A stretch of DNA of 64,000 nucleotides from an uncultured Candidatus Saccharibacteria bacterium (lineage in GTDB: Bacteria > Patescibacteriota > Dojkabacteria > J137). The notes below the pieces were generated by a model. The model ran no database searches, was not told where the DNA came from, and worked only from the letters and a program-made list of their open reading frames with translations. The DNA lies in assembly GCA_965230975.1 (NCBI GenBank), contig OZ246402.1, positions 573,009 to 637,008 of the forward strand. The letters run 5' to 3'. Positions within the stretch are counted from its first letter, which is position 1. The number at the start of each line of letters is the position of its first letter. This document shows, one piece after another, positions 39,208-49,989 of this stretch. Both the position numbers and the translations under genes were made by a program.

Positions 39208-42200
39208 ATGAGAATGAGAGATCCGCTAAGAAAATATAGAACCAGTCAGCGAAAGCTCAAAAAAATTCATTTGCTTATTATTTTGGCGGTTAGCATAACC
39301 ATATTCCCATTTGTACTTGTAGTTAATACTATCACAACAAGAGCAGTAGACTTTACATGGACACAAACAGACTGGAGTGGGGGTGTTAATACCAACGTAA
39401 TAACTTCAAATTCTAATACTTTCGTATCTCAAAGCTCAGTAGATTATGCAACTCCAGGAGAGATATTTTTAGGAGCAACTGAAAATTGGAGTGATGGTGC
39501 CTGGTCATATAGAAAATCAGTTAATCTTTCTAATACCGGATCAACATTAAGTAATTATCAGGTTATGGTAACTATTAACACCCAGCAACTTGTCTCTTTA
39601 GGTAAATTACAAAATGATTGCGATGATTTACGATTTACTACAAGTACAGGCACACAACTCAGTTATTATATGGATCCTGACTCTACTTGTAACACAGCAT
39701 CAACAGACTTTTGGGTTAAGGTTACTAGTATCCCAGCAGGTGCATCTGTAATACATATGTATTACGGAAATATAGCAGCGTCAAATGTTCAAAATGCAGA
39801 AAATACATTTGAATTTTTTGATGAATTTACAGGGTCTTCTTTAGATGCTGCAAAATGGCAAACAGGCGTAGGTGCAACAATTCCGGTTACTATAACCGGT
39901 GGGTATATGCTTCCTGGTTATGTGCCTTACAATTGGTCTGGTGCTTTAGCAAATGGTATGGGGGTTGCTCAAAACCAAATTAAGTATGGTGTTGTGGATG
40001 ATGTAGCTGTTGAATGGAAATCTTATATGGTTTTAGGTTCCACATTAGAGTATGGTCAATCAGGGTTTGCATTTGTAGACTCCAGTAATCTTTTAAGAGC
40101 AGCTATGTACCATGCAGATACAAATGTGAATACTTTAAACCCTTACTATGGTAATTTTATAGGGACTACAGTTGGTTCTTGGACCGAAGTCAATGGAGGC
40201 ACTTCTCGATTTAAACTTGTTAGAAATGGAACAAGTGTTACTTCGTATAGAAATAATGCACAGCAATCAACTGGTACTATGACAGTTAGCCCTACCAAAA
40301 TCACTTATTTCAAGCAGGACTATTATCCTAATGGTGGAAGTTGTGGTGGTAACTGTTACATGCAAAATAACAGAATATTTTGGGTCTTTACAAGAAAATC
40401 TGCTGCTACACCTCCAACAATCTCATCTTATGGGGTAGAACTTGGTCAATATGCAGATACGGGTACGTTAGAATCAAATATTTTTGATACTGGATTTTCT
40501 TCTAATTGGAATGCATTAACATTTACTAAAACAGGTAGTGGTACTGCAACAGTTAGAATTAGAACAGGAAATGCATCAGATTTAAGTGATGCTACAGCTT
40601 TTGCCTCTTGCAACACAATCTCAACTGGTGCAGATATATCAACAAATAATTGTGTAACTGATGGGCACAGATATTTACAGTATCAAGTCTCATTAAGTGC
40701 TAGTGGGACTTCACCAACTCTAACTGATATTTCAATCTCTTATACTCCTCAAGATTCTACTGCACCATCTGCAAATTCAACAAATGTACAATTAACAGGT
40801 TTATCTAATAACGATTGGGCAAAAATTGCACCAACAATAACTTGGACAGCAGGTACAGATGCAGGTGTTGGCATTGCAGGTTACTGTGTTTCTTTAGATG
40901 AAGTTCCAGTAGCTGGTTCATCTTCAACTTTGAATCCAATAACTTCATCAGGAAAATTTACAGGCTTAACAGATGCTAGCAGTTTAACACCTACAGTTTG
41001 CCCATATATTGTCAGTGGTAATTCACTAGATTTATCTACAGTCACGGGTTTAACTTTAACAAGTGGTAATAAATATTACTTTAGTTTAAAAGCGGTAGAT
41101 TTGGCAGGCAACGTTTGGACAGGAGCAAGTAATTTATATCAAGATTTAGTATGGTTTAGATTTGATAATACTTTACCTACAGCACCTAGTTTTATATCTA
41201 TGCCATCTAACTTTATATCTACAAAAGATGTAACAATAACTTGGCCAACAAGTAGCGGAGGTGCGTCAGATGCTGACTCTGGCTTAGCTGGTTTACAATA
41301 CAGAATTGGTGCTAGTGGAACATGGTTTGGTAATTTACGAAATGGAAATCAAGATTTAACAGACTTGCTTTTAAATAATGGAACTTATACTACAGATGCA
41401 ACCGTAGATTACCCACTATTACAAGAAGGTGTAAATGTTATTTACTTTAGATCTCTAGATTATGCAGGCAATGCATCTCTAACAATATCTGGAGCATTAA
41501 AATTAAATACTATTGCACCACAATCGATACAAAATTTAACTGCAACCCCTACTGACAATAATGTAAATAGTTACGCATTCTCTTGGGATCTACCATCTAG
41601 CTTTAGTGGTTCTGCAGATAACTTAACTTATTGTTATACAATAAATACTTTACCAACTGTCAATACTTGCCAATTTACCTCTGCAGGGGCTACTAACGTA
41701 TCTGCAGATGCATATGCAAGCCAACCAGGAGATAATACATTTTATGTAGTTGCAAAAGATGAGGCAGGTAATATTAACTATGCAACAGCAGAAAGTGTTA
41801 CATTTACGTATTCTGGTAGTGCACCTGGAATACCTCAAAATTTAGATGTTTCAGATATTTCTAATAAAGATACTCAAGATTGGAAGCTAGCAGTTACTTG
41901 GAATGAACCAACAAATGTAGGCGCAGGTATATCTACCTATAGAGTTTATAGAGCTATAGGTCAAGGTTTAACTTGTGCAAATGACTTTGGCCTATTTAGT
42001 CAGGTGAGTGTTGTTCAAGATGTATCATATATTAATACAGGTTTAAGCCAACAATACTACTCTTATTGTGTAAGGGCGTGTGATAGCGCAAATAATTGTT
42101 CTGCAGTTAGTGGTAGTGGAGATGAATTACCAACAGGTAAATACACAACACCTGCAACATTAGTTGCTGGCCCAACAACTCAACAAATTTCTACCAGAAA

Positions 42201-43359
42201 AGCAGTTGTAAGTTGGTCTACAAACAGAACATCAGATTCTAAAATTCAGTATGGTACGCAAACAGGTGTTTATTTTGAAGAAGAGTTTTCTAAATCTGCA
42301 CAAGTTACAGAGCATGTTATTACTTTAAATAACTTACAACCTGGAACTGTTTATTATTACAGAGCAAAGTGGACAGATGAAGATGGCAATACAGGTATTA
42401 GTGAGGAAAAAACATTTAAAACTGAACCTGCACCAGAAATCTCAAATGTTCAAACAAGTTCAGTAGGTGTTAACTTTGCTTTAGTTAAATTCACATCTGT
42501 TAGAGCTCAGAAAGTTAATATATATTATGGTAAAACAAGCCAATTTGGTGGTTTACAAACTATAAACACATCTATTCAAGAATCTCAAAGTATTTTTCAA
42601 TTAACTGGTTTAGATGATGGCACAAAGTATTATTTTAAAATAAACCCATTTGACTTAGATGGATTTGAGTATGAAGGAACTACACTTGACTTTACAACAG
42701 TTCCAAGACCAAGGGTCTTAGATGTTCAAATAGAAGAGGTAAAAGGCACAGCTCAACCAACTATTAAAGTTAATTGGAATTCAAATACAGAAATTAGCTC
42801 AATTGTTACATTTTACCCGGCTTCTAACTCGGGTTTAAAGCAAGATGTTGTAAATGTTACACCAAAAACTAAACATGAGCTTAAGTTAATATCATTAGAA
42901 GCAGAGACAAGATACGTACTAACTGTTAGAGGTATTGATAAATTAGGAAACGAGGCACTATCTACAGAATATAGCTTTACAACTGCTACAGACTCAAGAC
43001 CTCCAGTAATTTCTAACCTTAATGTAGAGACAGCAATCACAAATTCTACAGAAGTTAATAACGCCCAAATTGTAGTTTCTTGGACTACAGATGAATTATC
43101 TACTAGCCAAGTGTTGTTTGGTGAAGGGATTAATGAAAATGTAACACAAAGTACAACAGAAGATAAAAACTTAAAGTTTAATCATGTAATAGTTATATCT
43201 AACTTAAACCCATCTCAGGTTTATACAATAAGGGCTGTATCTAGAGATAGCCAAAGAAACGAAACTCAATCTGCAGATAATGTAACCGTTACTCCTTCAA
43301 GAACTGATTCTGCACTAGAGCTTATTTTGCAAAATGTATCGGATATTTTTGGAATATAA
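39208..43359 (+). CDS. giant extracellular/surface protein (1383 aa) with a lectin/LamG-like region and multiple FN3/Ig-like repeats
   Basis: N-terminal signal-anchor, S/T/N-rich beta-rich composition, repeated modules of about 90-100 aa with conserved W/Y spacing. Confidence 0.65.
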   Translation: MRMRDPLRKYRTSQRKLKKIHLLIILAVSITIFPFVLVVNTITTRAVDFTWTQTDWSGGVNTNVITSNSNTFVSQSSVDYATPGEIFLGATENWSDGAWSYRKSVNLSNTGSTLSNYQVMVTINTQQLVSLGKLQNDCDDLRFTTSTGTQLSYYMDPDSTCNTASTDFWVKVTSIPAGASVIHMYYGNIAASNVQNAENTFEFFDEFTGSSLDAAKWQTGVGATIPVTITGGYMLPGYVPYNWSGALANGMGVAQNQIKYGVVDDVAVEWKSYMVLGSTLEYGQSGFAFVDSSNLLRAAMYHADTNVNTLNPYYGNFIGTTVGSWTEVNGGTSRFKLVRNGTSVTSYRNNAQQSTGTMTVSPTKITYFKQDYYPNGGSCGGNCYMQNNRIFWVFTRKSAATPPTISSYGVELGQYADTGTLESNIFDTGFSSNWNALTFTKTGSGTATVRIRTGNASDLSDATAFASCNTISTGADISTNNCVTDGHRYLQYQVSLSASGTSPTLTDISISYTPQDSTAPSANSTNVQLTGLSNNDWAKIAPTITWTAGTDAGVGIAGYCVSLDEVPVAGSSSTLNPITSSGKFTGLTDASSLTPTVCPYIVSGNSLDLSTVTGLTLTSGNKYYFSLKAVDLAGNVWTGASNLYQDLVWFRFDNTLPTAPSFISMPSNFISTKDVTITWPTSSGGASDADSGLAGLQYRIGASGTWFGNLRNGNQDLTDLLLNNGTYTTDATVDYPLLQEGVNVIYFRSLDYAGNASLTISGALKLNTIAPQSIQNLTATPTDNNVNSYAFSWDLPSSFSGSADNLTYCYTINTLPTVNTCQFTSAGATNVSADAYASQPGDNTFYVVAKDEAGNINYATAESVTFTYSGSAPGIPQNLDVSDISNKDTQDWKLAVTWNEPTNVGAGISTYRVYRAIGQGLTCANDFGLFSQVSVVQDVSYINTGLSQQYYSYCVRACDSANNCSAVSGSGDELPTGKYTTPATLVAGPTTQQISTRKAVVSWSTNRTSDSKIQYGTQTGVYFEEEFSKSAQVTEHVITLNNLQPGTVYYYRAKWTDEDGNTGISEEKTFKTEPAPEISNVQTSSVGVNFALVKFTSVRAQKVNIYYGKTSQFGGLQTINTSIQESQSIFQLTGLDDGTKYYFKINPFDLDGFEYEGTTLDFTTVPRPRVLDVQIEEVKGTAQPTIKVNWNSNTEISSIVTFYPASNSGLKQDVVNVTPKTKHELKLISLEAETRYVLTVRGIDKLGNEALSTEYSFTTATDSRPPVISNLNVETAITNSTEVNNAQIVVSWTTDELSTSQVLFGEGINENVTQSTTEDKNLKFNHVIVISNLNPSQVYTIRAVSRDSQRNETQSADNVTVTPSRTDSALELILQNVSDIFGI

Positions 43360-43362
43360 ATT

Positions 43363-45633
43363 ATGGCAAATATATTAGAAGTAAAAAATCTATTTAAGGT
43401 TTACAACGTTAAGTCTGAAAATGTAGTTGTGTTAAGAAATATTAATCTTGAAATGCAAGATGGAGAATTCTTGATTCTTTTTGGCCCATCCGGTTGTGGA
43501 AAATCTACACTTTTAAATACAATTTTAGGTTTAGAAACTATCAGTAGTGGTAGTGTAAACTTACTTGGAAAACAAATTTCAAACCTCTCTCAAGACCAAT
43601 TAGCAGATATTAGAAAAAACAATGTAGGTATAGTTTATCAACAACCAAATTGGGTTAAATCTTTAAATGTTTTAGAAAATGTAGCTTTTCCATTATTAAT
43701 TAAAGGGATTAAAAGGGATGTAGCCTTAAAAAAGGCTAAAGAGAAGTTAGCATTGGTAGAAATGACAAATTGGACAGAATACTATCCGGTTGATTTATCT
43801 TCGGGTCAACAGCAAAAAGTTGCATTAGCCAGAGCATTAATTAATGAACCAAAAGTTTTAATAGCAGACGAGCCTACTGGTAATCTTGATTATAAAAGTA
43901 GCAATTCGTTAATGGGTATTTTTAGAGATTTATCTAATCAAGGTATCTCTATACTTTTAGTAACTCATAACCTTGTAAACTTAGATTATGCAGATAGAGT
44001 TGCCAGAATGTTTGATGGACAAATTGTAGAGTATATAGATGCAAAAAAAATATCTGAAAAAAAGCTAGATGAAATGTTGCACCCTACAGATGTTACCAAT
44101 AGTACATCTTATAAATTAAGTTTTAATATTAATAAACCTAAAAAAATTAACTTACTGGCAGATATTTTAAAAGGTCTATTATTACCACTTTTACTAGTAA
44201 AAACTGTAACTCTATTAGCTTTGTTTAGCGTGTTTAAATTATCAACTATTTTAAATAGAATAGGGTTTTATAAGTTATCTGAATCCATAGATTATTTAAT
44301 AAATATTATAGATAGAAGAGAGAATAATTCAGTAAGGTTTTCAGATGTAGCTGATATCTCTTTGAAAACTTTATTTACACACAGGGTTAGGACTTTTGTA
44401 ACAATTGGTGGTGTTGCTGTTGGTGTAAGCTTTACTGTATTGTTATTTTCTATTGGATTTGGATTTGAGCAAGTTGTTGTATCTAGAATTGCTAACTTAG
44501 AAGAATTAAATCAAGTTGATGTTGCACCACTCCCTACTAGTAATGTTTTTATAACAACTAATTCTGTGGAATCACTTAAAAATATTCCATCAATTAACAC
44601 TGTTTTACCTGTTATTGGTATTGCAGGCAAAACTAATTATGAAGGTGCTTTAGCAGATGTTGTTGTTAAGGGTGTTTCTACGAATTATATAAAAGATACA
44701 GGTTTAAAGATTACAGCAGGTAATGAGTTTTCTGCTGAATCAAATGATTTAAACTTTCAAAACATAGATGAAATTGTTCAAAATTATAAAGATAAGAATC
44801 AAATCGAAGATGATTCTTTAGGTGAAATAATTTTAGATTTACCAATTAAAGAAAGGCAAGCTGTTGTAAATGAGTCAATTTTGAATCTTTTCAATTTGCG
44901 TAAAGAAGATGCAATAGGTAAGACTTTTAAAGTTAAATTTATAGCTACTAATTCTTTAATAGGGAATAATTATAAAATATCTTCTACAGATACAGAGTAT
45001 ACAATTGTAGGTGTTGTTTCTTTTAAAGAAGAGAAGAATATTTACATTCCTGCAGAGGATTTATTGCCATTGGGTGTTCAAAGATTTTCAGAAGCCAAGT
45101 TAATTGTTTCTAATACGGACGATATTAGAAATGTTAGGGTTTCAACAGAGGCATTAGGTTTTAGGACTAGATCTATTCAAGATACTATTTCTCAGGTTAA
45201 TGCTGTGTTTGATAATGTTAGGTTAATTTTTGGAGCTGTTGGAGTCGTTGCTTTGTTTATAGCATCTTTAGGCATGTTTAATACTTTAACTGTTTCTTTA
45301 CTTGAAAGAATAAGAGAGGTTGGATTAATGAAAGCAATTGGTATGAAGTCTTTTGAAGTAAGGTCTTTGTTTTTAGCAGAGTCTACTATTATGGGCTTTT
45401 TTGGCGGTTTCTTTGGTATTATTTTAGGGGTTATTTTAGGTACGATCTTATCTTCTATTATATCTGCACTTTATATATCTAGAGGGGGAGAGTATGTAAC
45501 ATTGACTTTCTTACCACTAGAAGCAGCATTGGCAATATTGTTTATATCTGTATTGATTGGTATTTTGACAGGGTACTATCCTTCTGTAAGAGCAACAAGA
45601 ATATCTCCGTTAGAGGCATTAAGACACGAGTAG
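43363..45633 (+). CDS. MacB-like ABC transporter, fused ATPase-FtsX permease
   Basis: Walker A GPSGCGKST, signature LSSGQQQKVALARAL, Walker B LIADEPTGNLD. C-terminal four-TM FtsX-like permease with a large periplasmic domain. Starts 3 nt after the giant protein stop. Confidence 0.8.
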   Translation: MANILEVKNLFKVYNVKSENVVVLRNINLEMQDGEFLILFGPSGCGKSTLLNTILGLETISSGSVNLLGKQISNLSQDQLADIRKNNVGIVYQQPNWVKSLNVLENVAFPLLIKGIKRDVALKKAKEKLALVEMTNWTEYYPVDLSSGQQQKVALARALINEPKVLIADEPTGNLDYKSSNSLMGIFRDLSNQGISILLVTHNLVNLDYADRVARMFDGQIVEYIDAKKISEKKLDEMLHPTDVTNSTSYKLSFNINKPKKINLLADILKGLLLPLLLVKTVTLLALFSVFKLSTILNRIGFYKLSESIDYLINIIDRRENNSVRFSDVADISLKTLFTHRVRTFVTIGGVAVGVSFTVLLFSIGFGFEQVVVSRIANLEELNQVDVAPLPTSNVFITTNSVESLKNIPSINTVLPVIGIAGKTNYEGALADVVVKGVSTNYIKDTGLKITAGNEFSAESNDLNFQNIDEIVQNYKDKNQIEDDSLGEIILDLPIKERQAVVNESILNLFNLRKEDAIGKTFKVKFIATNSLIGNNYKISSTDTEYTIVGVVSFKEEKNIYIPAEDLLPLGVQRFSEAKLIVSNTDDIRNVRVSTEALGFRTRSIQDTISQVNAVFDNVRLIFGAVGVVALFIASLGMFNTLTVSLLERIREVGLMKAIGMKSFEVRSLFLAESTIMGFFGGFFGIILGVILGTILSSIISALYISRGGEYVTLTFLPLEAALAILFISVLIGILTGYYPSVRATRISPLEALRHE

Positions 45634-45635
45634 GT

Positions 45636-46190
45636 TTACCAATGCGGAAATTTGTGAGTAATTTTATTGTTTTCTTCTAGCGTTGTTTTTATTTGTTGGC
45701 TATTATTTGAATAGTAGATTACATCCCCGTCTTCTGTATATTCATTTCCATTCTCAGATACATGAATAAAATTTTGGTTCTTACCAGTGAACACTTCCAT
45801 TCCAGATTTTTTGTAGAACTCTGCATTTTTAGGTTCACAAAACCCTACAATCGTTTGTTTTGATTCTTTGGCATATTCCACCATTTTGTTTATTAGTATT
45901 TTCCCGTAACCTTTACCTTGAATAATAGAAATTATTGCTTGCATTCCTAATATTTCTACTTCTCGTTTATCTACCATTACTTTTAAAGAACGTAGAGTCC
46001 CAAATGAAACTAGTTTGTTGTCATCTCTAACTAGGAAAAAAAGTCTGTCCTGGAATTGGTTATTTATTTTGTGATCCCAGATTCGATTTCTACCCAGTCT
46101 GATTACCCTGTATTCATTAACCAAATCAAGATCTTCTTGTTTAAGATTTGTTCCCAGTACTATTTCTGTAGTTATGTTCATGATTAGCAT
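45636..46190 (-). CDS. GNAT family acetyltransferase
   Basis: Motif A IQGKGYGKILINKMVEYA. Confidence 0.6.
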   Translation of the reverse strand: MLIMNITTEIVLGTNLKQEDLDLVNEYRVIRLGRNRIWDHKINNQFQDRLFFLVRDDNKLVSFGTLRSLKVMVDKREVEILGMQAIISIIQGKGYGKILINKMVEYAKESKQTIVGFCEPKNAEFYKKSGMEVFTGKNQNFIHVSENGNEYTEDGDVIYYSNNSQQIKTTLEENNKITHKFPHW

Positions 46191-46220: not shown

Positions 46221-46814
46221 TTATTTTTCATAAAGATATCTAGATATAATATTTAGTAATTCTTCGTCACTCATGTTTCTACTATCTAGATTTAGTTCTT
46301 CGTTCCATTTGTCCCAGAATGGTTTGTCTTTTGGTGTGTGATCAGGTTGCAATCCTAATTCTTTACAGATCTCATCTAAGTTTTTAGTGTCGTCAAATAA
46401 TTCTACTTCAAATGGGTATTTTTCGCTTTTGCCTGTTTGGTGAGACAACTTAATTTCTGCATATCCTAGATCAAACAAGTAGTTTGTGTACTGCATTATT
46501 TGTTGGGATGGTATTTGTGCATTTACAGATATTATTATTGCTTTAAAAAAGTTTAGGATTGCTTTAGCATCGTTTACTAGTGGTATTTCTAGTTCTGTTC
46601 TTTCTCTTTTATTCCAGTCTCCTGTTTTTTGTACAAACTCAGCTTGTCCGTTTGTTATTTTTATTCTGCTATCTACTTCTGGCCTTGCCCAGTCGCTTGT
46701 TTCTATTGCTAGTCGAGTCTTTTTAATTGGCTGACCAAATTTGGCTGTAAACTCTTCAAGTTTTTGGTTAAATTGTTGTTGGGTTAATAGTCCCCAGTAT
46801 TCTTTTTCTAACAT
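46221..46814 (-). CDS. hypothetical protein
   Basis: ORF only. Confidence 0.45.
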   Translation of the reverse strand: MLEKEYWGLLTQQQFNQKLEEFTAKFGQPIKKTRLAIETSDWARPEVDSRIKITNGQAEFVQKTGDWNKRERTELEIPLVNDAKAILNFFKAIIISVNAQIPSQQIMQYTNYLFDLGYAEIKLSHQTGKSEKYPFEVELFDDTKNLDEICKELGLQPDHTPKDKPFWDKWNEELNLDSRNMSDEELLNIISRYLYEK

Positions 46815-46829
46815 ATGGTTTTACTAAAT

Positions 46830-47771
46830 TTAGTAAAAGGAAAAGACTTCATCGGAAACTTCTCCAGTATCCCAAAGTATTTTGTTCTCTGGTTTGGATT
46901 TTATTACTACTCTTACAACCACATTCGTTGTGAGGGTAGGTAAAAATTGTACATCCTTTCTTTCATATCTTACATCTCCATATTCATTTGAAATATTGAA
47001 ATCGGTAAGCCAAATTTGGTATGGAACCCAGGAATTTCCACTTGAAATATAATTATTCTTAAATTCACCTTCATCGTTATTCTTAATATAAGCAAGAATT
47101 TCTAAATCATTAACACTGTCTAGTCCTGGACACATAAATGAACCTCGCATCTTTTGAGATGGATTATAAATTCCACCTAAAATCTCGTTTACAGGAGAGA
47201 GTATAGTTAGAGTTTTAAAATAGTAAAATGTGTCAGAAACTTTAATTTCAGATAATAAATCACCCTGAATGACCTGGACATAACATTTGTAATATCCATT
47301 TTGTAAGTTGTAAAGTCTTAGTTCAGTTTGATATCCTGTAAATTCTAATGAGTTTGGTATAGGGTCAGATGCTTTGAGAATTGCAGATTTGAATCCTCCT
47401 AGCATATTTTCTCCTTCCCAGTTGCATTCCAGAACGCCAATATCAGATTTATTTACTAATCTTATTGCAGTAACCCGAGGTAAAGTTGAAGAATTATTAT
47501 TATTTATATTTTCGTTATTATTAGTGTTAGTGATAACTTTTTGCTCATTATTATCAGTTTTTGAGACTTCTTTAGTCTCATTGGATTCGTTAACTGTCAT
47601 ATCCTCATTGTTAATTATGACATAAGATGTAGGGTATTCTTGAATCGAACTACTAAAGACATTTTTATCATGTTCGAATTTCAAAAATATACAAATTAAA
47701 AGTGTGACTATAATCGCTACACCTAGCGCAAAAATAATTAGCGATTTTTTATTAATATTTAAAAGAGACAT
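46830..47771 (-). CDS. membrane-anchored hypothetical protein with N-rich linker
   Basis: N-terminal TM, Asn-rich low-complexity spacer, about 200-aa C-terminal domain. Confidence 0.5.
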   Translation of the reverse strand: MSLLNINKKSLIIFALGVAIIVTLLICIFLKFEHDKNVFSSSIQEYPTSYVIINNEDMTVNESNETKEVSKTDNNEQKVITNTNNNENINNNNSSTLPRVTAIRLVNKSDIGVLECNWEGENMLGGFKSAILKASDPIPNSLEFTGYQTELRLYNLQNGYYKCYVQVIQGDLLSEIKVSDTFYYFKTLTILSPVNEILGGIYNPSQKMRGSFMCPGLDSVNDLEILAYIKNNDEGEFKNNYISSGNSWVPYQIWLTDFNISNEYGDVRYERKDVQFLPTLTTNVVVRVVIKSKPENKILWDTGEVSDEVFSFY

Positions 47772-47885
47772 AATAGTAACTTAATTTAGTAATCTTAGCA
47801 TTTAATTATTTATATTTCATTGTGTCGCATTACAAATATAGAAATTTTCTCTTATTAAATATTTGCTTAGATTTATAATCATGTT

Positions 47886-48323
47886 ATGAATTACTCACAG
47901 ATTTTATTTGAAAAAGCAACTTCATTTGCAGAAAATTTAAAAGTCAATACCGATATATCGTCTATATTTCTAGGTGGTTCAGGTAGTAGAGGAGTAGAGG
48001 AGTAGAGGATATTAATTCGGATGTCGAAATATATATTGTGCTCAATATTAAACGTAAACTGAATTCATACGTTTACTATTAAAATGCTTGTAGATATGGA
48101 ATATGAAGTGCCTGGAGAGTGGACCATATCTTTATTAATTGAAGGAATTAAATATGACATGTATTTTTGGGAGCTTTCATATATAGATGAGTTAATTACT
48201 AATCATTCTAATTCAATATTGAGTTCTTTAGATGAATGTTCTATTTCTTCGATTTTGGATGCAAAAGTAATTACTGGCAAACTATATATCAAGTCATTGC
48301 AATTAAATTATCAAACTACCTAA
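47886..48323 (+). pseudogene. Disrupted nucleotidyltransferase-fold gene: +8 frameshift from a third copy of an 8-bp tandem repeat, plus a second 1-nt frameshift
   Basis: 5' ORF encodes ...IFLGGSGSRGVEE then stops. With two rather than three copies of agtagagg (47985-48008), the frame continues into DINSDVEIYIVLN (hG[GS]...D[IV][DE]h nucleotidyltransferase motif). The downstream ORF 48084-48323 is in a further shifted frame. Confidence 0.5.
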
Positions 48324-48533
48324 AACAACTACAGTCCAAACTTATTCATGAATAAATTTCCATTGAAATTTGAGGAGTTTAAATTGTTTTTGAAGTTTTA
48401 ATTACGTAGTTTTTCTCTTTTTGTGAAATCTTCATTTTAATTCACTAATAATTTCCAATATATTTGTGCCACGGTACATTGTTGAGTTTCTGTTTAGAAG
48501 TTACTATGCGGTATTAAATTTTATAAGAATAGT

Positions 48534-48746
48534 ATGACCTTTGGTGAAAAAATTCAAATTTTGAGATTAAAAAAAGGCATTAGCCAAAAGCAGTTTTCTA
48601 AAGAATCTGGTATTCCCTTTTATACAATTGTCTCTTTAGAATATGATAGAACTAAAATCCCCCTAATAACTACTGTAATAAAACTAGCCCACTATTTTAA
48701 ACTAAGCATTATAGAAATTATTGAGGGTGTAGATTTTAAAAAATAA
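48534..48746 (+). CDS. XRE-family helix-turn-helix transcriptional regulator
   Basis: IQILRLKKGISQKQFSKESGIPFYTIVSLE is a classic HTH_3 motif. Confidence 0.75.
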   Translation: MTFGEKIQILRLKKGISQKQFSKESGIPFYTIVSLEYDRTKIPLITTVIKLAHYFKLSIIEIIEGVDFKK

Positions 48747-48789: not shown

Positions 48790-49989
48790 TTATTCTATAG
48801 TGCTTTTATCAAATAAAGATATGGGTATTTCCTCTTCTTCGGCAGTTAGCAAAAACTCTTTAAGCATCTCTTTATGTTCGTCATTTTGCATATAAGACCA
48901 GTCTGTTGCCTCATTATAGTTAGATTTATCTTCACTAAAAAGATTAATCTCTACTCTATATTCATTAAGTTGGTAGTTTTTTATATATTTTGCAACCTCT
49001 ATTATGCCTTCTAATATAGCTTTCCTATCGTTTAATGATATAGTAATACGTTTTTCTTCATCGTTAGTATATTTTTGATAGAAAGAACCGGTGTTAATCC
49101 ACACATCTCTCGTTCGTAGTTCTTGAGCTGCACCTATGGCAATATCAGGTTGAATAAATTCAGATGCTCTAAAAATTTCTTGTGCATTAAACTGGGCATT
49201 TGGAGCCCATGGGAATCCTTGAATACCAAAACTATCTACCAATGTCTTATCTATATTAACTAAGTATGGAGCTAAGCTAATGTAGTCTCCATTGTCCCAT
49301 AACACATCATCAGGTTCATAAGTTGTAGCATTTAATAAAATACTACCTTTTGCGTTTGGAAAATACTTTTTTAAAGATCTTAAATATGTATTTACTACAA
49401 TCCCAAAATCAGAAGGCTCTGTGTCTTTATTATCCCAATTTGGAGTATTCGATTCTGGAAAGGGCACCCATGTCCCCATCATTTCATCTGTAACACCTCT
49501 TTGCTTTAGTTCAAAAAAGAATGTATCTAGTGGCTTATTGTAAACTCCATTTAAAAAATCTCTGTACCTCAATAAGTTGCCACCAGTATATGGCTCTACT
49601 ATTACAATAGGCTGTATATTATTTTGCTTAAATAAATCAAGCTTAGTAGCGATAGTAAAGGCAAGTTCCTGGGCTGAGGTTTGATCAAAAGGAATATGTG
49701 TAAAAAACATTAGTTTATTTGTAACATAGGAGTCACAAATATCTTGATATTCTGCTAATTTTATTAAGTTTTCGTCTTGTTGTGTATTTAAATTTAATGA
49801 GTCTTTTGTTGAGCATTTAGTAAACATTGGCAAATTATCACTTTTATCTTCTTTAACAATATTGGTTAAGGTTTCGTTTAAAATCTCTTTTATGGTTTGG
49901 TTACTAAATATATTGAAAGTGAAAATCACAAAACAAAAAACTGACATAATAATAATCCCGTTTGCAATAAGTAATTCTCTGTTTTTCAT
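48790..49989 (-). CDS. membrane-anchored hypothetical protein, possibly a TIM-barrel glycoside hydrolase-like partner of the GT2 synthase
   Basis: N-terminal TM. No motif recognised with confidence. Starts 17 nt after the GT2 gene stop. Confidence 0.4.
   Translation of the reverse strand: MKNRELLIANGIIIMSVFCFVIFTFNIFSNQTIKEILNETLTNIVKEDKSDNLPMFTKCSTKDSLNLNTQQDENLIKLAEYQDICDSYVTNKLMFFTHIPFDQTSAQELAFTIATKLDLFKQNNIQPIVIVEPYTGGNLLRYRDFLNGVYNKPLDTFFFELKQRGVTDEMMGTWVPFPESNTPNWDNKDTEPSDFGIVVNTYLRSLKKYFPNAKGSILLNATTYEPDDVLWDNGDYISLAPYLVNIDKTLVDSFGIQGFPWAPNAQFNAQEIFRASEFIQPDIAIGAAQELRTRDVWINTGSFYQKYTNDEEKRITISLNDRKAILEGIIEVAKYIKNYQLNEYRVEINLFSEDKSNYNEATDWSYMQNDEHKEMLKEFLLTAEEEEIPISLFDKSTIE

Follow-up and report, generated by a model that had tools for sequence, protein, structure and literature searches.

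We analysed a window of 64,000 nucleotides, i.e. the whole stretch of DNA, and found that segment 47886–48355 is, with a probability of about 90%, a fixed, multiply disrupted and truncated nucleotidyltransferase (NTase) pseudogene with at least four lesions, an 8-bp duplication being one of them. Three frame changes and one truncation affect the reading frame, and 6 of 19 family-invariant positions are replaced. The repeat is the mark of one past mutation and not a working switch, and the process at this locus is plain gene decay. A preliminary description of the locus had proposed a contingency switch driven by the copy number of the repeat, with the reservation that the gene "may be decaying rather than switching". 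Given the multiple lesions and the truncation, this reservation was the correct reading. The same description placed the end of the feature at 48323, but the remnant extends to 48355 (its end falling at 48352–48355). It also overlooked another frameshift, the third, near 48302, and the absence of the C-terminal half.

The AGTAGAGG array is real and not a product of chance. As previously described, three perfect tandem copies of AGTAGAGG are present on the plus strand at 47985–48008, and Tandem Repeats Finder reports 3.1 copies with 100% matches at 47985–48009 (score 50). The two-unit 16-mer AGTAGAGGAGTAGAGG is found at a single site in the window, which is the repeat locus, and gave 0 matches in 100 dinucleotide-preserving shuffles. 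Among the perfect arrays of the 64 kb with a unit of 7–12 bp, five have two copies and only AGTAGAGG reaches at least three; a two-copy 8-mer by itself is unremarkable. The open reading frame starting at ATG 47886 (47886–48005, 39 aa) had been said to end immediately after the repeat. The TAG of this 5′ ORF (48003–48005, plus strand) is in fact located inside the third unit, in the context GAG GAG TAG, according to the sequence, the ORF list and a simulation of the repeat.

In this simulation, which covered 0–6 copies, the local frame is open at n = 2 only: n = 1 is out of frame, and an in-frame TAG occurs at every n ≥ 3, including the frame-equivalent n = 5. With two copies, GSGSRGVEDINSDVE is restored and the translation ends in GGSGSRGVEDINSDVEIYIVLNIKRKLNSYVYY followed by a stop, the open frame reading through to LGGSGSRGVEDINSDVEIYIVLNIKRKLNSYVYY and a stop. 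The two-copy version can also be aligned with intact homologues without any gap. The earlier statement that removal of one unit restores the frame was confirmed. Its codons are AGT AGA GGA GTA GAG GAT (S-R-G-V-E-D), and the homologous codons are AGT AGA AAT ATT GCA GAT in contig L004 and GGA AGA AAA ATT GCA GAT in contig L002, with no tandem repeat in either. The gapless alignment and the absence of the repeat in the homologues show that the ancestor carried, by chance, two adjacent copies and that one unit was added; judging from these comparisons, the two-copy state is the ancestral open frame. The third AGTAGAGG unit was added to the two adjacent ones within codons of the active-site loop, bringing a TAG in frame, and it probably arose from one replication-slippage event (slipped-strand mispairing).

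An active slipped-strand contingency locus, with an 8-bp copy number that fluctuates in the population and toggles NTase expression, is extremely unlikely, although the repeat is perfect, is located early in the coding sequence, has a unit that is not a multiple of three and allows the frame to be locally regained with one unit fewer. As n = 2 is the sole open state and a TAG is met at all n ≥ 3, including n = 5, there is a single possible "on" state and no periodic series. The three copies are below the cut-off of PhasomeIt (PMC6321876), which requires five copies or more when the unit has at least 4 nt, other long non-triplet arrays are absent from the 64 kb, and the homologues have no repeat. 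Moreover, the two-copy allele would still be null: its ORF would stop at 48080–48082 and would need another shift near 48302, and with two more frameshifts and about 118 codons lost, no copy-number change could restore function. In addition to the repeat, the gene has at least three further inactivating lesions.

The locus was found on about three contigs only, and the allele in one genome only. The independent short-read Logan assembly of SRR12762303, which may share reads with the NCBI genome, is 100% identical to the window over 47700–48560 (861 bp, all lesions included), so that the two assemblies are identical and both have three copies. A pattern scan of the JGI metagenomes for the locus with 1–4 repeat units returned no match, and the two-copy product was not found in protein libraries of 5.8 billion clusters or 1.84 billion representatives. 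A comparison of strains had been suggested as a check on the switch; in the data available so far, the three copies and the other lesions are fixed. Like the simple sequence repeat (SSR) contingency loci (tetranucleotides of Haemophilus, pentanucleotides of Neisseria, poly-G of Campylobacter), the window locus has an intragenic non-triplet repeat in which a change of one unit causes a frameshift. In contrast to them, it presents only three copies and one open state, its orthologues lack the repeat, the gene is otherwise destroyed, and no copy-number polymorphism was observed on these about three contigs. It is also very improbable that the octanucleotide once acted as a low-frequency slippage switch of a KNTase/LinB-like (possibly antibiotic-modifying) enzyme before the other lesions were fixed, or that variation persists in a minority of cells. 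Were this true, it would provide the candidate phyla radiation (CPR) with its first reported case of repeat-mediated phase variation.

The pseudogene can be read as four consecutive fragments of the plus strand. Fragment 1 (47886–48002, frame 0; ORF list and HMM) corresponds to the N-terminal helix and to the beginning of the NTase motif, MNYSQILFEKATSFAENLKVNTDISSIFLGGSGSRGVE. It matches the family HMM with E = 1.6e-8 and aligns with residues 1–38 of the intact homologues P0009, P0007 and P0004. Fragment 2 (48009–48079, frame 2 relative to the ATG) encodes the catalytic D-x-E and the next strand, (VE)DINSDVEIYIVLNIKRKLNSYVYY, and stops at TAA 48080–48082; the family HMM matches the piece 47990–48079 (HMM positions 30–55). 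Once reconstructed with two copies, the catalytic motif reads LGGSGSRGVEDINSDVEIYIV, which fits hG[GS]-x(9-13)-D-h-[DE]-h and aligns with the family-invariant G31 S32 ... D39 ... S42 D43 x E45. In the actual sequence, this motif is split over two frames.

Lesion 2 is a net −17 nt frameshift in the IVW-to-LVD interval (48046–48088, plus strand), detected in DNA and protein alignments with the homologues: from the conserved IV(W/L) strand to LVD, there are 43 nt in the window vs. 60 nt in the homologues. The frame change must sit between the frame-0 TGA (48060–48062) and the frame-2 TAA (48080–48082), and the region of the family-invariant Arg59 was lost through this lesion. A second, 1-nt frameshift had been announced downstream of the repeat: a second frame change does exist, but it corresponds to a net 17-nt shortfall and is not demonstrably a single-nucleotide event. 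A net loss of 17 nt past the catalytic D-x-E strand accounts for it.

Fragment 3 (48084–48301, plus strand, frame 0), which is part of a 79-aa ORF (48084–48323), encodes the remainder of the NTase domain together with the first helices, MLVDMEYEVPGEWTISLLIEGIKYDMYFWE...SISSILDAKVITGKLYIKSLQ. The family HMM matches the piece 48063–48320 (E = 4e-21), and fragment 3 is also supported by tblastn with P0002 and P0004. Lesion 3, the lack of one nucleotide in the A/T-rich run CAATTAAA (48300–48304, plus strand), then changes frame 0 to frame 2, as indicated by the colinear continuation of the family sequence. This continuation is fragment 4 (48302–48355, plus strand, frame 2), which reads IKLSNYLKQLQSKLIHE and then TAA. 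IKLSNYLKQLQSKLIHE resembles the family segment N-R-F-S-K-Y-P-x-x-L-x-E-K-I-I-K (positions 144–160 of about 280). The third frameshift was tested by a PSSM scan, hmmsearch on whole-frame translations being uninformative. With a PSSM built from these 17 family alignment columns, IKLSNYLKQLQSKLIHE ranks first among the 127,894 six-frame windows of the 64 kb. This top rank, together with the exact colinear position, supports a third frameshift near 48300–48304, which results from the loss of 1 nt near 48302.

The 39-aa and 79-aa ORFs should be annotated as fragments of a single pseudogene and not be counted as proteins. That the fragments are still used, either with the 79-aa ORF (48084–48323) kept as a small protein or with the pieces joined by programmed frameshifting or readthrough, is highly unlikely. 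The 8-bp gain and the second shift do add up to a multiple of three, leaving both ORFs in frame 0, and the 79-aa ORF has an ATG start and is reported by gene callers. However, TAG 48003 and TGA 48060 separate the two ORFs in this frame, and the catalytic D-x-E is only present in another one; three separate recoding events would be required, and even these would leave the protein without the helical domain. Upstream of 48084, no Shine-Dalgarno-like sequence can be seen, and the 79-aa product was found in no other organism in the protein libraries searched. When the reconstructed protein (143 aa) was used in a word-indexed search, only the window's own 79-aa ORF was returned. This ORF is also present on a contig of 50–200 kb.

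The pseudogene is also truncated. Lesion 4 is a breakpoint at 48353 (no strand assigned) beyond which the last ~118 codons, i.e. the DUF4037-type helical domain, are absent, according to blastn, alignments and gene tables. The whole window covers positions 1–149 of the 281 of the family HMM (E = 5e-32), and the C-terminal helical substrate-binding domain is missing beyond family position ~160. The last ~118 family residues had no match in any frame of 48356–48533, the 178 bp before the next gene, and the family HMM detected no second copy of the NTase family elsewhere in the window. At least ~170 bp are deleted at the 3′ end.

The end of the remnant is the point where strains cease to be colinear, so the last codon of the pseudogene abuts a strain-level rearrangement breakpoint. 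By blastn, two contigs align with the window from 48353 rightwards (L017, SRR32414321, 99.3% identity; L018, SRR12404957, 98.8% identity), and another aligns from 48464 rightwards (L019, ERZ795034, 99.2% identity). A further contig (L021, SRR8831206, 99.5% identity) aligns from 48339, which is its own start, and is of the window type. Left of the breakpoint, L017 has two other genes, one of 455 aa and one of 3420 aa with RHS/YD repeats, and no NTase remnant. The rearrangement or a deletion at this breakpoint likely caused the 3′ truncation; the last ~118 codons would have been removed by the event behind the strain-variable junction. L017 and L018 are wholly divergent left of 48353 (L017:1–2318), with unrelated genes there, and L019 and L020 left of 48464, which makes this a strain-variable junction upstream of an HTH_3 gene.

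Some long-read assemblies are known to contain erroneous single-base indels in A/T runs. Lesion 3 is an indel of this kind, and this 1-nt lesion near 48302 could in principle be a consensus error, although two assemblies agree on it. It is nevertheless most improbable that the lesions as a whole are assembly or sequencing artefacts and that the real gene is intact. A perfect 8-bp duplication, a 17-nt shortfall and a missing 3′ half of ~350 bp are atypical as consensus errors, and the separate Logan assembly is the same base for base over 861 bp. Moreover, the truncation point coincides with a breakpoint between strains that is real and that four other samples also show, and invariant residues are substituted and not just frameshifted.

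These substitutions were counted over 154 reconstructable residues, a position being considered invariant when none of the 14 family members deviates from the others. Of the 19 such positions, 6 are changed in the window (A38E, Y41N, W50L, R59, Q121E and P150L), as are 6 of the 17 near-invariant ones. Over the same columns, the window averages 33% identity to 12 outgroup members, vs. 41–42% for its nearest intact relatives, P0009 and P0007. The neighbouring GNAT gene, in contrast, is intact and has 62% identity to the one near P0009. The losses of invariant residues and the low identity would fit a relaxed constraint on the NTase remnant or, alternatively, a fast-evolving lineage. As a third of the invariant residues are replaced, the gene has probably been drifting without selection for some time.

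Pseudogenes produced by slipped-strand duplication show the same gain of a unit in a short direct repeat, leading to a frameshift and a premature stop, and the same later frameshifts, 3′ deletion and substitutions of conserved residues, as well as a location at a strain-variable junction. There is no substantial difference from ordinary bacterial pseudogenes, the parent gene here being from an uncharacterised family of Patescibacteria.

The identification of the gene as a nucleotidyltransferase was upheld by the family profile (E = 5e-32, see above) and by the KNTase/LinB-like fold predicted for its intact relatives. The reconstructed window protein alone is matched in Pfam by NTP_transf_2 and Polbeta with E ~ 0.02, below the gathering score; it has no match in NCBIfam, and none by phmmer against the PDB sequences. 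A phmmer search of 1.84 billion representatives and a profile search led to a small family of about 16 proteins, in which all complete members have 278–285 aa. Few are named, and the named sources are all Patescibacteria, namely a Candidatus Dojkabacteria MAG (P0017) and "Patescibacteria group bacterium BroJett037" (L005). For the D-Ala-D-Ala ligase encoded in the window, too, the nearest named relatives belong to Dojkabacteria and Patescibacteria (~58% identity). Together with the 1.19-Mb contig, its ~31% G+C and its dense table-11 ORFs, this places the host, with a genome of ~1.2 Mb, among the CPR bacteria. Among 14 members, 13 match DUF4037, 12 match Polbeta (best 3e-6) and 7 match NTP_transf_2. 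In the PDB, the family profile matches LinB (3JYY, E = 7e-4) and, more weakly, kanamycin nucleotidyltransferase.

The AlphaFold2 model of P0009, the closest intact relative, has a mean pLDDT of 89.8 and a pTM of 0.87, with helices at residues 100–274. With this model, Foldseek retrieved first a full-length match to ANT(4′)-Ia (TM 0.56–0.63), then LinB, ANT(6) and AadA. The parent gene of about 280 aa is thus predicted to encode a Pol-beta-type catalytic N-terminal domain and a DUF4037-type helical C-terminal domain with a KNTase/LinB-like fold. Its intact relatives have in common with ANT(4′)-Ia (PDB 1KNY) and LinB/LnuB (PDB 3JYY) the two-domain architecture and the G-S-x(n)-D-x-E motif, and their full-length Foldseek matches to these enzymes have TM values of 0.5–0.63. 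However, the identity with KNTase/LinB-type enzymes is only 9–15%, and the C-terminal domain matches Pfam DUF4037 and not the KNTase C-terminal family; in the window copy, this C-terminal domain is wholly absent.

This unannotated NTase family of 278–285 aa, with its predicted KNTase/LinB-like fold and its DUF4037 domain, is apparently restricted to Patescibacteria. It is one by-product of the present analysis; the other is the strain-variable junction that directly precedes a conserved HTH regulator gene. P0007 is flanked on both sides by genes for ABC-F-type ATPases, P0009 adjoins GNAT and NUDIX genes, and P0004 and the BroJett037 member are located downstream of methyltransferase/NUDIX/GT2 genes. 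It is possible that the intact family comprises antibiotic- or small-molecule-modifying enzymes of CPR bacteria.

Three other interpretations were rejected. P0002 (142 aa) is not a natural short form of the family but a contig-end fragment of the 278-aa P0007: it is the same as P0007 up to residue ~136, after which the Logan contig continues with an unrelated, G+C-richer sequence and a stop (L004:1960–1994). A toxin–antitoxin system of the MNT/HEPN type, with an NTase of ~140 aa beside a small HTH gene, was discarded since all the intact relatives (~280 aa) have a KNTase-like fold and include a helical domain by fusion. Nor was an alternative genetic code retained, the window being dense in ORFs under table 11 and the first stop being a TAG. 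Codes 4 and 25 leave TAG unreassigned.

Concerning the neighbourhood, an intact GNAT acetyltransferase gene (45636–46190, minus strand, 184 aa) encodes a protein with 62% identity to another GNAT, whose gene is two genes away from P0009 (L006). The GNAT–NTase neighbourhood seems ancestral, with a different orientation. No such gene-order link was found in BroJett037, and the gene-order comparison gave no counterpart for the neighbouring ORFs of 197 and 313 aa. These two ORFs (46221–46814 and 46830–47771, both on the minus strand) and a 399-aa ORF (48790–49989, minus strand) flank the pseudogene and lack any significant match in Pfam. The product of the 313-aa ORF has a hydrophobic segment at its N-terminus and a linker that is rich in Asn and of low complexity. 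Further upstream, a 1383-aa ORF (39208–43359, plus strand) with DUF2341, fibronectin-III/purple-acid-phosphatase-N and Big_3 domains probably encodes a large surface protein; the gene after it (43363–45633) is for a fused ABC transporter of the MacB type.

Promoter and terminator scans and Rfam added nothing at the locus. The next gene downstream of the remnant encodes an HTH_3 regulator (48534–48746), and this HTH protein was found on nine contigs from several samples. About 55 bp upstream of the HTH_3 gene lies an imperfect palindrome, TGTGCCACGGTACA (48465–48478), which is the sole match in the 64 kb. It is kept in all the strain contigs, even in L019, where no more than the last ~70 bp are shared, and is a putative operator of the HTH protein. 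In the upstream DNA specific to L017 (about 2280–2300), there is an additional palindrome, TGTGCCATGGCACA, which is perfect.
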